Below are positions 17,762-53,657 of a DNA stretch of 64,000 nucleotides, in pieces; position 1 is the stretch's first letter, and each line of letters begins with the position of its first letter. The translations under genes were made by a program, and so were the position numbers. This stretch comes from Dictyostelium discoideum (lineage: Eukaryota). The notes below the pieces were generated by a model. The model worked only from the letters and a program-made list of their open reading frames with translations, was not told the DNA's origin and did not search any database. Location of the stretch: NCBI GenBank assembly GCA_000004695.1, contig CM000151.3:1216001-1280000 (forward strand), in the 5' to 3' direction.

Positions 17762-20700
17762 ATGAATAAAATATTATACTATTTATTATTATTTATATTC
17801 TTCTTTGTACATTACCTTAATTCACAACCACAACAACCACAAGAACAACAACGAGAGCAACAACCACGACTACAACAATCACAAGATATCAATAATGATA
17901 TAATAAATATTTATGTAAATTCAAATTATACCAATAGCAATGGTAATGGTACCATAGTAAATCCATTTCAAAATTTATGTGTGCTTAATAATTTATTACC
18001 AAGATTAAACAATTTAAACAATACAATAATAATAATAAATATAGGATATGGTTTTTATGATATTAAAAAATGCACTTTTTCTCAATTAATAATAAAAAAT
18101 TATAACAATATAACTTTTATACCATATGATTTTAATAATGAGAATAATAATAATAATAATAATAATAACAATAAAATAGTTTTAAAAAATACATATTTAA
18201 TTATTACAAATTCAACAATTAATTTTCAAAATGAAATAATATTAAATTTAAATGGTTTTTCATTTTCTTTTAGTCACATAGAGTTTAATGATGGAGTTGA
18301 AATTAATTTTCAAGGAACTTTACCAACGATAAATTATTGTAATTTAAAATTTAAAAATTCAAAATTTAATTTTTTATACTCCACATCTCATATGGAATGT
18401 ACAAATAGTTTAATTGAATTCATAGGATCAACATTGGGAGGTGGGGAAATTATATTTTATTCAGGTTTAGAACCAATAAAAGATAGTGGTATTATATTTA
18501 GAGATAATAGTTTTTCAATAAAGAATAATTTGAAAATGGCAGTTTATAAATTACATGTTGAAAATTCAGTATGGATAGATTCAACAGTATCAAGTTTTTC
18601 AAGTATTCATTTCAATGAAACTAATATTTTTAAATCACAAAATCAAAATGATAATCAACAACAACAACAAATAGAAGAAGATAATCCAATGTTTTCATTA
18701 TCAAATCAAGATTTATTTAAGATTAATGTAATTTTAAATATAGTGAATTGTAAAATCAATTATATTGATCCACATCAAGGTGAGACAAGTTATTCAATGA
18801 TTTCAATTTTTTCAAGTTTTCAACCAGTTATTCAAATGATTTCAATAAGTAATGTGGAAATCTCAGGATTTAATAGTAAACAACCATTAATTTTTCAAAA
18901 AGGTGAATCAAGTTCATTAGAAATTAATAATGTTCTCATAGAGAATTGTACATCATTACAATTTATAGATTCACAATCTGGTGATATAAAATTAAGTCAA
19001 ATGAAATTTAGAAATAATAAATTTAAAATATTAATTGAAATTAGAAATTCAAATCTTTATTTCTATGAAACTGGAATACTTTGTAGTGATAATAATGATA
19101 TAGGTTTAATGGTATCTTTTGATACTACAACCTATTTGTTAACAGAGGATGTAGAAACAGCAATAACAACAACAACATATGGTCGTAATAATATTTTATT
19201 AGAGAATTTAGTTTTTCAATGTTCAGGTTTATTTAATTTCATTAAATCTGATATTAGAATTGAAAGTGTTAGAATGGAATCATCATTTAAAAATTCATTA
19301 ATTTCACTTTATAATGATTGTTCAGCACAAATATCCAATAGTCAATTACTTTCAAATTCATTTGAATCAAAGTCATTATTCTATATAAATTCAAGTCAAT
19401 TATTTATATTTAATAGTGACTTTAGTGGTAGTACTGCATCATTTGTTTCAGCATGGAAAGATTCAATAATTTATTTAGAATCTACAAGTTGGAATAAATT
19501 ATTCTCAAAGGGTAAACCAAATTTTATTATCGAGGAATCCTATTTACATATTACAAATTCAACATTTGATGGTGTTCAATCATCTAGTGCACTAATTGAA
19601 AGTTATAAATCATATATTGATATTAGTAATACAACGATTAATGCATTTGGTAGTAAATCAATTCTTTATAGTGAATCTTCTCAATATGTAATTCTTAGTG
19701 ATTTGGTTTTAAATGGTTGTTTCTCTCAAGATCAATTATTTTATATATATCAAGCTCAAACAGTTGATATAAAAAGATGTATTTTTAATAATAATCGTGG
19801 ATATGGTTATAATTTATTTAAATTTATAAATTGTACCACTGTGAATATAGAGTTTACAAAGTTTATTGGAAACTCATTCTCACCATTAATTCAAAGTTAT
19901 CAATCAAGTTTAATTTTACAATCGATTACATTGATTGGTAATTCAGGTTCGTTCATTAATAGTATTGGTGATGTCATTGTGAAAGTTTATAATTTAACTT
20001 ATACAGATAATTTAATAACCTATGACTATTTATTTGTTTCTGAAAATACTCGATCGATTATTCTAAATTCCATAACTATCAATAATAATTATTTCAATAA
20101 TTTTTTATTCATTTTTGATAATGTATCAAATTTATTTTTTAATGATTTCACTTTATCAAATAATCTATTAAGTGAAATCGATAAAAACGATACACCAATG
20201 ATACTTTTTCAAAATTGTCAAATCACTTCATTCATTAATTTCAATATTATTAATAATTCAATTTCAAAATCATTATTCAAGTCTACAAATTCTAGATTGG
20301 TTTTTGCTCGATTAATATTTTCATCAAATCAAATCACTGGTATTGATAATAGTTTCATTGATTCTTTAACTTCAAATATTATAATTACAAATTCAATAAT
20401 ATCAAATAATAATGGTAATTGTAAAAGTTTAATAAATTTAAATGCTTGTTCTTTAACTATAGATTCAACTAATTTCCAAGGAAATTATTTCATTCAAAAT
20501 GGTGATGGATCAATTATTTCTTATAAATCTATTATCAATGAAAAGATTGGTAATAACTTTTTTCAAATTTCAAATTCAATATTTTATAATAATTTTGGGA
20601 AATTTGGTGCTGTTTTTTCATTTTATAATTTCTCACTTTTAAATGATACAAAATATCCAATCATTAATAATAATAGTATATTCAATAATAATAGTTTTAT

Positions 20701-51500: not shown

Positions 51501-53657
51501 GAATTGAGTTTGAGTGATATTTAAAATTGAACCATTTAAAGTAAACATTTGATAACTTAAACCATGATTACCATCAAATACTGAACTTGCAATGAAAATA
51601 TAATCATCTACTGATGTTATCAATTGACTTTGTGTAAAACTTTGAGAAACATTAACAATATTCATGGAGATCTTTGACCGTGATGAATTGAATAGTTGTT
51701 GACTAACCAATAGAAAGTTAGTCTCACTAATATAAACCAATGAACTCTCTGATTGAATTAAAGATGATGAACTAATTCTACAATTGTTAAATAGTGTAGA
51801 ATATATCTCCAATATCGAGTCATCAGCAACGGTAATTATCGGCTGACTGGTTTGAAGGTCAATAAATTTTGAATTGTTATCAATTAACACAGAGGAATTC
51901 TTCACAGCCATCACTATTGGTACTGCGCTATCAAAGAAATTAGATTGTGATATTGTTATTGAACTTTGTTCGAAATAGAAAAGTTGATTAATTTTACCAA
52001 ATGGATTTGAAATGAAATCACTTGATATAATATTAACTATGCTCCCTTGATAGCCATTTATGAATGAATCACTACCTATTGATATCATTGTTACAAATTC
52101 GAAATTAACAATTGAATTTCTGAACTCAAATGAACCTTCAATAGATTCCAAGAAAATATTAGAGAATTCAATACTACTCGACATTTCGAAACTATTTTCA
52201 TCTTTTGGCATCGACAAAAACTTTTGAATTATATTATTTTGTGTAGAGTTAATTGATAGATTTGAAATTTCAATATTTGATGAATTACGTGCTTCTAACA
52301 TTGTCTCAAAAATACAATTTGTAAAAATTAAATCACTGATTACTAAATTTGTATTCTCCATTGTAAACATTGATGGTGAAACGCAATTATCAAATTCCAC
52401 CAACTCCAATGATATTGTTATATTTCCACCATAGGATGTCGATGCAAACATTGACTCATATTTATGAAATCCTATCATTCTAATATTATACAATATAATC
52501 AATACATCTTGCTCAATATCAAGTGAAACTATTAATGAAAGTGCGCCATATTTAGGATTGGCTCTAAATTCTGAATTTAGAATAGTAATTTTTGAGCCAT
52601 TTTCATTGAATAACTCTTTATCTATATTAATAATGCCAACACTATTATAATATTCTGACCATAATTTTAGGTCATTTTGATTAAATAATATATTTTCAAA
52701 TTTACTATTATCTGCTACTGTAAATAGTACAGTTTCTTGCCATATTGAATTTTTAACATTTATATCACTAAATCCCATTTGAAAGAAACTTCCCATTACT
52801 TTAGAATCTATAATTTCTACTCTACCACCACCACCACTACTAGCGAATTTCGGATTTGAATTGAAATTAATTGATACTTGTTTTAATGTTGATTTTTGAA
52901 AATATAGTAAACTATCCTCTATCATATATTTTTGATCATAGATTGATGATATCATTGTTGAATTTATTAATTTAATCACTGAATTTGAAATTATACTATA
53001 TATATTATATTTATCCTTGAAAATTATATAAGCATTATCTATAATATTCATTTCACTATTACTTATATTCCAACTACCATAAAATGTTATAAAAGGTCCT
53101 TGAATATAAAATTTTGAATTTATTATTTTAAATGAATTATAAATTGAAACTTTTTGTTCTCCTTCTTCTTCTTCTTTATTATTATTATTATTATTATTAT
53201 TATTATTATTATTATTATTATTATTATTATTATTATTATTATTATTATTATTATCTTTACTACTGCTACTATTACTTATATATGGTTTGAATGTAACATT
53301 TTTACAATTTAAAATTAAAAATTGATAACAATTTGTATCATTGTATATACCATATCCTATATTTACTATTATTATAGATGTAGCTATATTATTATTATTT
53401 TTATTATTATTATTATTATTATTATTATTATTAATATTATTAAGTATTGATTCTATTTGACAAATGCTATTGTATGGATTTATAATTGTTCCATTACCAT
53501 TATTTTGATTGTTTGAATTTATGTAAATATTTATTATATTATTATCTTCATATTGGTTAATATTATTATTATTATTATTAATATTTTGTGAACAAACGTT
53601 ATTTAAAAAAATAAAAATTAAAAAAATAAAAGTTAATGAATATTTATATATTTTCAT
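48510..53657 (-). CDS. Large secreted beta-helix-like (Pmp-like repeat) protein with Cys-rich module and C-terminal multi-TM domain, copy B; join(complement(50361..53657),complement(48510..50284))
   Basis: Signal peptide MKIYKYSLTFIFLIFIFLNNVCS. Same organisation as copy A: IINIYINSNNQNNGNGTIINPY...IIIVNIGYGIYNDTNCYQF ~ IINIYVNSNYTNSNGNGTIVNPF...IIIINIGYGFYDIKKCTF. QQGGVVYTTDSPFNENMTKVLNSNFFIGNTAFCGPNFSS sits before donor GTAAGT at 50355-60 (minus); the acceptor is AAATAG. Exon 2 reads CSPYQFYNTTSEMCTYCPNNYALSQLLGKCYPCNTNIMNC...CPLDMCLSYNLCTSNSSFGNLCFSCKDEYG...RCC followed by at least 7 helices. Coding poly-Asn/(ATT)n tracts lie at 53160-53250 and 53400-53440. Confidence 0.7.

Follow-up and report, generated by a model that had tools for sequence, protein, structure and literature searches.

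A probable CRMP-like family of beta-helix membrane proteins in Dictyostelium discoideum: two intact genes and a decayed tandem copy

A stretch of 64,000 nucleotides from chromosome 2 of Dictyostelium discoideum AX4 (assembly GCA_000004695.1, contig CM000151.3, positions 1,216,001 to 1,280,000; hereafter the window) carries three related genes for large membrane proteins, referred to here as copies A, B and C. It is probable that the intact copies A and B and the decayed copy C belong to a family of dictyostelid membrane glycoproteins like the Cysteine Repeat Modular Proteins (CRMPs), the 'contact sensor' proteins of malaria and Toxoplasma parasites; this reading takes in the function proposed below for the proteins and the history of the B/C pair. 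By comparison of sequence profiles, the membrane core of A and B was shown to be homologous to the conserved core of the apicomplexan CRMPs, which consists of two EGF-like domains and nine transmembrane (TM) helices (PMC9815656, Singer et al. 2023). The family is real and uncharacterised, and it is neither one of chlamydial polymorphic membrane proteins (Pmp) nor a family of G-protein-coupled receptors (GPCRs).

The gene models agree with a sequence-only reading of the window, which had placed three related genes at these positions, and a tblastn search with A and B as queries detected exactly these three copies in the window. Copy A is encoded on the plus strand at 17762-22792 (exon 1, 17762-20831; intron, 20832-20903; exon 2, 20904-22792; 1652 aa), and its spliced translation, with GT..AG splice sites, is identical to XP_645334.1 (DDB_G0272102, Q55A59). 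Copy B is encoded on the minus strand at 48510-53657 (exon 1, 53657-50360; intron, 50359-50285; exon 2, 50284-48510; 1690 aa), and is spliced as in P0004, the NCBI model from a second strain of D. discoideum. Copy C, at 43741-48157 on the minus strand, follows immediately downstream of B and runs in the same direction. A single intron, of phase 1, follows the sequence ...CG(I/P)NFSS at the same position in all three copies; for A and B this had been noticed from the sequence. The description of the three copies as a cluster holds only loosely, since the B/C pair is separated from A by 25.7 kb that contain unrelated genes for Kelch-RhoGAP, SNF2/RING-helicase and Ank-SAM-kinase proteins.

The membrane core and its relation to CRMPs

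The product of exon 2 of copy B was modelled by AlphaFold2 (AF2) from an alignment of 17 sequences, with a predicted local distance difference test score (pLDDT) of 79.5 and a predicted template-modelling score (pTM) of 0.74. Three parts were distinguished in the model. The first, residues 1-95 of exon 2 (49998-50282, minus strand), is predicted to be an immunoglobulin (Ig)-like beta-sandwich on the basis of the AF2 strands and of Foldseek, which matched it to filamin, macroglobulin and Ig domains (probability 1.0, E about 3e-3). The second, at 49677-49991 on the minus strand, is a module with 13 invariant cysteines, modelled as small disulfide-type hairpins, in which a part like those of TNFR and ephrin receptors is followed by a juxtamembrane EGF-like piece. 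This Cys-rich juxtamembrane piece corresponds to Pfam DUF7630, which was matched in 4 of 17 family members with a best E of 1.8e-6. Weak profile matches of the module were also observed to the Cys-rich regions of ELAPOR1 and EphB6 (E 0.02-0.07), and the region aligns in B with the EGF-like part of the CRMP core. The 8-10 cysteines originally counted in this module thus have to be replaced by 13 conserved ones on alignment. In copy A the Ig-like domain and the 13-Cys module that follows it occupy 20906-21544 on the plus strand, the cysteines falling at aa 1133-1237 by alignment to B.

The third part of exon 2 in copy B, at 48546-49664 on the minus strand, contains nine long helices in the AF2 model and was assigned from this model and from hhalign as a membrane core of CRMP type, in which nine helices are followed by a basic tail in the cytosol. 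The corresponding core with nine TM helices in copy A, at 21551-22708 on the plus strand, was assigned from hydropathy, from a family alignment headed by B and A (alignment A2) and from hhalign to the CRMP core. The loops of the copy B model hold 29 lysine plus arginine residues on the inside against 4 on the outside, in keeping with the positive-inside rule, and the model thus shows a topology with the N-terminus outside and the C-terminus inside. Two local peculiarities were noted in copy A: a polyasparagine run at aa 1463-1487 (about 22220-22295 in the window), a lineage-specific insert in the cytosolic loop between TM5 and TM6, and a run of nine tyrosines in which TM9 terminates.

For the comparison with CRMPs, the core sequences of TgCRMPA, TgCRMPB, PbCRMP1 and PbCRMP2 were taken from S2 Table of PMC9815656. 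With alignment A2, hhalign gave a probability score of 99.1 and E of 5.6e-19 over 346 columns. A family subset containing neither A nor B (alignment A4) gave a score of 99.6 and E of 3.8e-24 over 347 columns. When the sequences of either the CRMP cores or the family were reversed as controls, E remained at 0.002-0.04 over 14-24 columns. Four landmarks are aligned between the family and the CRMPs, namely the Cys motif C-P-x3-C-x5-C-x7-LC-x2-C-x2-GY, an extracellular 'YL..D.S..C' hairpin, a juxtamembrane helix '(Y/F)(R/K)..(F/Y)(K/W)(W/Y)W(D/E)...(R/K)' and a 'P(F/Y)..(K/R)...N..E' turn; identity of the family core to CRMPs is only about 17-20%. The order by which CRMPs are defined, EGF-like juxtamembrane Cys-rich domain(s) followed by nine TM helices (PMC9815656), is present in the family. 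Cys-rich extracellular modules of the ephrin-receptor-like, EGF or furin-like kind are present as well, as a single module and thus in smaller number than in apicomplexan CRMPs.

One D. discoideum protein with a beta-helix is already known in the CRMP literature. In PMC9815656, Q86I19 (XP_643780.1) is called a homolog of CRMPs and stands among the CRMP sequences assembled and aligned there; together with two further D. discoideum proteins it was described as having another ectodomain and a similar 9-TM part. Comparison of its core with alignment A2 by hhalign gave a probability score of 99.3 and E of 1.8e-20 over 409 columns. Q86I19 resembles A and B in having a signal peptide, PbH1 beta-helix repeats (detected by SMART), a Cys-rich region and a CRMP-type TM core, but it differs from them in a long low-complexity cytosolic loop and tail of its own, and it is encoded outside the window. 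The BLASTP match between B and Q86I19 was confined to the Cys-rich part (E 3e-4), so that the published homolog is only distantly paralogous to A and B. Neither A nor B is among the proteins named in PMC9815656; what is new here is the recognition of A, B and the dead copy C as CRMP-like members.

The beta-helix ectodomain

A and B each begin with a signal peptide (encoded by 17762-17824 in A), followed by an ectodomain of about 1000 aa that is rich in asparagine (15-16%), serine (13-15%), isoleucine (12-13%) and phenylalanine (8-9%); both features bear out the sequence-only reading. By model and fold comparison, the ectodomain is a right-handed parallel beta-helix, of the pectin-lyase-like fold, at 17894-20821 on the plus strand in copy A (about aa 45-1020) and at 50373-53540 on the minus strand in copy B, where it contains polyasparagine and a G/S-rich low-complexity insert. 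The N-terminal cap 'NGNGTIxNPFQxLC' is conserved in the family. For exon 1 of copy A, an AF2 model based on 12 aligned family sequences showed periodic short strands throughout (pLDDT 80.8). When the ectodomain model was compared with the PDB by Foldseek, 100% of the matches were right-handed parallel beta-helices, with E from 3e-5; they included PL6 alginate lyases, the HK620 and Sf6 tailspikes, GH87 enzymes, AlgG/AlgE and the adhesin PfbA. Because the TM-scores (template-modelling scores) of these matches are low (0.1-0.25, at 8-11% identity), this evidence stays at the level of the fold. The Pfam Beta_helix profile is significant in the homologs P0022, P0023, P0030 and P0036, Acytostelium, Heterostelium and Gaertneriomyces being among their sources, and at the level of the family the beta-helix assignment is solid. 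The rod is estimated to have about 40 coils and a length of about 20 nm. The G/S-rich run in copy B, at aa 876-920 (about 50900-51030 in the window), is a lineage-specific insert within the helix.

The structural matches raise the question of whether these proteins are membrane-anchored enzymes, the beta-helix being a lyase, hydrolase or epimerase for bacterial or matrix polysaccharide and the TM core an anchor only. Alginate lyases of PL6, tailspike endoglycosidases, GH87 enzymes and alginate epimerases are indeed at the top of the matches, but at such TM-scores and identities they speak for the fold and not for the enzyme family. No CAZy-type Pfam match was detected in A, in B or in the family members. 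The helix is fast-evolving (identity between A and B is 27-31%, and the ratio of nonsynonymous to synonymous substitution rates, dN/dS, of copy B against its D. dimigraforme ortholog is 0.45), and in the family alignment of the beta-helix (A3) only G and N columns are invariant, no conserved catalytic constellation being apparent. Moreover, a conserved core of nine helices exceeds the needs of an anchor. We therefore regard an enzymatic role as unlikely.

A second alternative takes the ectodomain for a chlamydial Pmp-type adhesin, with a Pmp repeat array possibly derived from chlamydial symbionts and comparable to an autotransporter passenger. The sequence-only reading had leaned this way, with GG[AV]xY and FxxN motifs as characters of the ectodomain. 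The beta-helix half of that proposal stands, and the right-handed helix is indeed the fold of Pmp passengers. The motifs do not hold up: GG[AVIL] was counted once in A and twice in B, in all cases within the last coils (aa 1031 and 1063 in B), and FxxN occurs 17 times in A and 16 times in B, close to the 13.7 and 13.8 expected after shuffling and thus at chance frequency. The Chlam_PMP profile (PF02415) gave no match on the whole open reading frames (ORFs) of A and B. On segments it reached 12.8 and 11.8 bits, below the cut-off of 20.6, at a single site, equivalent in A and B, the sequence 'NNxAxQQGGVxYT' in the last coils; a single GGV-type motif preceded by 'NNxA' is thus what A and B have in common with Pmp besides the helix. 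Repeats of real Pmp type are found in distant family members, with 87.7 bits in a Mallomonas homolog and 17.6-19 bits in chytrid homologs. A and B have no GGA(I/L/V)/FxxN array, and in place of an autotransporter beta-barrel, for which no Pfam match was obtained in A or B, the C-terminus is the alpha-helical 9-TM domain. The genes carry conserved spliceosomal introns, and the family occurs in amoebae, fungi and stramenopiles, in agreement with an old eukaryotic beta-helix module rather than a recent transfer. A literature search on polymorphic outer membrane proteins in Dictyostelium yielded only a paper on a symbiont. A chlamydial Pmp-type adhesin is very improbable.

Equally improbable is an adhesion-GPCR-like receptor, that is, a divergent seven-helix protein coupled to heterotrimeric G proteins. 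The earlier description of the C-terminus as polytopic was correct, though not its count of at least seven helices in the sense of a GPCR, and a large adhesive ectodomain on a polytopic C-terminus does recall adhesion GPCRs, albeit as a concept only. The domain has nine helices and not the seven of a secretin-like 7TM, no Pfam match to 7tm, GAIN or GPS was detected at E <= 1, and the place where a GAIN domain with its GPS would be expected is taken by the Cys-rich EGF-like module. Foldseek against the PDB returned Ig-domain matches only for exon 2. PANTHER labels TgCRMPa and PfCRMP1 'GPCR-like', and CRMPs themselves have been described as 'not bona fide GPCRs' and as 'analogous to adhesion GPCRs' (PMC9670195, Sparvoli et al. 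2022). Since the CRMP literature itself draws this comparison, the GPCR analogy has a parallel in idea, not in homology; that the membrane core truly belongs with the CRMPs of alveolates had been missed.

Copies B and C

Copy C is a pseudogene in D. discoideum. Its ATG at 48157, its signal peptide and, at 45207-45135, the conserved intron are still present, but on alignment to its intact syntenic ortholog in D. dimigraforme (P0005, L001 11444-16492) it changes frame six times in addition to the intron and has nine or more in-frame stops, as is characteristic of a unitary pseudogene. Conserved cysteines are replaced (CFSC to YFGC, CC to CF, YCP to YRP), and a 327-bp deletion near 43974-43977 takes out part of the TM region. 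Gene calls in C are fragmentary: the 3' remnant is annotated as DDB_G0272352, with 313 aa, and in the assembly of a second D. discoideum isolate (GCA_054883475.1) the gene is called as products of 585 and 558 aa. The two assemblies are identical over 4.7 kb of C except for two 1-bp indels, at 47668 and 47333, which may reflect true polymorphism at a locus that no longer works or a mistake in either assembly. In both, the frame is broken at least six times, several stops lie in frame and the 327-bp segment is missing. The sequence-only reading had recognised copy C as lying beside B in the same orientation and as disabled by frameshifts and a stop; as these lesions persist in the second assembly, its pseudogenisation is not an effect of sequencing.

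The pair formed by B and C is an old one. On D. dimigraforme contig JBTAPM010000008, the B ortholog (L001 871-6404) is followed by the intact C ortholog, with which copy C aligns from end to end at 78-82% nucleotide identity. Copy C is not young, because this intact syntenic ortholog exists. Against the orthologs of D. dimigraforme, dN/dS was 0.35 and 0.24 for C and 0.45 (helix) and 0.34 (exon 2) for B; the similarity of these ratios suggests, as far as substitution patterns go, that C lost its function late in the D. discoideum lineage. The NCBI model P0005 has about 330 unrelated N-terminal residues fused onto the C ortholog. In D. dimigraforme a further tandem paralog was observed upstream of the B ortholog (L001 1-642), the 1674-aa product of which extends off the locus; in nucleotide sequence it is no more than 66-69% identical to the 3' terminal parts of A, B and C. 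Since Spt6 is located at the corresponding side in D. discoideum, the size of the tandem array differs between the two species. The B and C orthologs of D. dimigraforme are also separated by about 4.6 kb of extra DNA (L001 6781-11400), with ORFs that gave no Pfam match, as compared with about 350 bp in D. discoideum.

The near-identity of B and C in the TM region, which had been taken to cover all of it, was found to be restricted to a segment. The blastn comparison of B and C gave one block of 665 bp with 90.7% identity (C 44198-44858, B 49342-50003), as against 65-79% elsewhere. The two are 49-79% identical in the rest of the TM region and 29-37% in the beta-helix at the amino-acid level. 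An alignment of the four sequences DdisB, DdisC, DdimB and DdimC was scanned in 200-bp windows of alignment columns, by which a tract was delimited at 49393-49957 in B and 44250-44810 in C (both minus strand), from the end of the Cys module through TM3. Within this tract, identity amounts to 93-98.5% for the D. discoideum paralogs and to 86-97.5% for those of D. dimigraforme; for orthologs it is 90-95% (B) and 88-91.5% (C), the paralogs being closer in most windows. Outside the tract the nucleotide identity is 50-68% between paralogs and 79-90% between orthologs. Informative sites inside the tract were in favour of within-species grouping by 18:8, whereas the ratio of within-species grouping to orthology was 1:99 and 5:77 in the flanks (6:176 in total; Fisher p = 4e-15 versus the tract).

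These site patterns show that the near-identity of B and C is due to concerted evolution by gene conversion over about 0.55 kb, and the same tract appears from the alignment to have been homogenised in D. dimigraforme, too. The sequence-only reading had offered a very recent tandem duplication or gene conversion followed by decay; conversion and decay are borne out, while the recent duplication gives way to the intact ortholog in D. dimigraforme. That C could nonetheless be a very recent duplicate of B, or an intact gene with frameshifts from sequencing errors, is hardly credible, as the adjacency and common orientation of B and C, their 98%-identical segment and the two indels that differ between assemblies are outweighed by the end-to-end alignment of C with a separate syntenic gene, the 176:6 ratio for orthology outside the tract, and the disruptions, replaced cysteines and short gene calls described above. 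Tandem paralogs with identical or nearly identical central DNA are also known among CRMPs, in CRMP1/2 of Theileria and Babesia (PMC9815656).

Surroundings, distribution and possible function

The window is strongly AT-rich, with a GC content of 11-36%; the intergenic stretch at 40001-42000 is the lowest, with 11%. The genes that neighbour the family loci are ordinary. Besides eIF3l (Paf67) and eIF3a (5375-10750), they encode an FNIP-repeat protein (11644-17247, plus strand), a Kelch and RhoGAP protein (22870-27441, minus), a protein with Ank repeats, a SAM domain and a protein kinase domain (35605-38348, minus) and Spt6 (55354-59931, minus). A further gene, at 29702-35311 (plus), encodes an ATPase of the SNF2 family that carries RING finger and Helicase_C domains and resembles Rad5/Rad16; it is split into two ORFs with a break at 33334/33473, presumably by an intron. 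No tRNA gene was detected in the window by ARAGORN.

The distribution of the family was examined by an exhaustive hmmsearch of 1.84e9 representative proteins with the exon-2 profile at E <= 1e-3. Only 36 proteins were matched, nearly all of 1000-2300 aa and with the match at the C-terminus. Among dictyostelids they come from D. discoideum strains, D. dimigraforme, D. firmibasis, D. purpureum, Tieghemostelium, Heterostelium, Acytostelium and Synstelium, and outside this group from the chytrids Spizellomyces and Gaertneriomyces, the chrysophyte Mallomonas and metagenome eukaryotes. None of the 36 carries a functional name, the labels being 'hypothetical', 'Right handed beta helix domain-containing' and 'DUF7630 domain-containing', in line with the earlier judgement that the family is poorly characterised; a literature search for DUF7630 likewise found no paper. 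SadA and Phg1/TM9SF are 9-TM adhesion proteins of Dictyostelium, and their likeness to the family would be an analogy to the TM core only. Nothing of their size or type was noticed among the 36 matches, an observation made on the list and not by comparison at the sequence level.

The likeness of the family to CRMPs, which are distributed in Apicomplexa, chromerids and ciliates (TgCRMPA/B, Pb/PfCRMP1-4, TtCRMP1/2), is not limited to the homologous nine-helix core and its juxtamembrane EGF-like Cys motif. Both groups have a large, variable and adhesive-looking ectodomain with Ig-like (He_PIG in CRMPs) and ephrin-receptor-like modules, and both share the N-out, C-in topology. Unlike CRMPs, the Dictyostelium proteins carry a beta-helix of about 1000 aa in place of Kringle, MAR or EGF arrays and have no long cytosolic C-terminal extension; the organism is not known to have rhoptries or mucocysts.

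By their architecture, A and B are directed into the secretory pathway by the signal peptide and anchored in the membrane by the nine-helix core, with the beta-helix rod displayed on the Ig-like domain and a stalk formed by the 13-Cys module, with its TNFR/ephrin-receptor-like and EGF-like parts. The function is proposed as follows. The fast-evolving beta-helix may bind an external ligand, most likely a glycan or the surface of prey, matrix or another cell. The conserved 9-TM core may pair with that of a paralog and relay or organise a membrane response; this is argued by analogy, because T. gondii CRMPA/B and Tetrahymena CRMPs are needed for contact-triggered regulated exocytosis. The CRMPs of T. 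gondii are required for rhoptry discharge, and mucocyst discharge was impaired in knockouts of two of three Tetrahymena genes from a screen (PMC9670195). A heterodimer of TgCRMPA and TgCRMPB through the TM core was predicted by AlphaFold-Multimer (PMC9815656). By this analogy A and B may serve as sensors of contact or of a ligand, possibly as dimers, and the suggestion that they are candidate surface receptors or adhesins is a reasonable one.

Several points weigh against the CRMP-like reading of A, B and C. Neither A nor B gave a significant Pfam match, whether whole ORFs or sub-segments were searched, so that their domain assignments come from profiles, models and family context; the AF2 alignments were shallow, with 17 sequences for exon 2 of B and 12 for exon 1 of A. 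The acidic E of the CRMP 'WYWE' motif is missing from the Dictyostelium core (KWF in B, KYWD in A). A single hmmsearch with the exon-2 profile did not reach the apicomplexan CRMPs, and profile-profile comparison is the sole connection to them. Searches of the literature with the gene IDs of A (DDB_G0272102) and C (DDB_G0272352) yielded no paper, and data on expression, localisation or phenotype were not found for A, B or C. As to function, MIC15, TSP1, rhoptries and mucocysts are not known from Amoebozoa. The Nd proteins are restricted to Alveolata (PMC9670195). As the partners and machinery of alveolate CRMPs are not known in Amoebozoa, the exocytosis function may not transfer to Dictyostelium.

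A more far-reaching interpretation would make the nine-helix core an ancient pan-eukaryotic contact-sensor module, shared by alveolates, amoebozoans, chytrids and chrysophytes. In Dictyostelium, too, it would link the binding of a surface ligand by the beta-helix to a triggered event at the membrane, for example regulated exocytosis. Paralogs would then dimerise through the segment between the end of the Cys module and TM3, and its repeated homogenisation, observed in two Dictyostelium species and echoed by the identical central DNA of the tandem CRMP1/2 genes in Theileria and Babesia, would be favoured for that reason. We hold this interpretation to be rather doubtful.

Within the more limited reading, that of a CRMP-like family, D. 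discoideum has a small multigene family with a CRMP core, comprising the published homolog and at least A, B and the dead copy C; otherwise these genes are ordinary, already annotated hypothetical proteins. The locus is a clean small example of concerted evolution within one functional segment of a tandem pair, and one that continued even after the death of one partner. As D. discoideum is haploid and genetically tractable, the basic function of this core, be it dimerisation, signalling or trafficking, is testable there outside a parasite.

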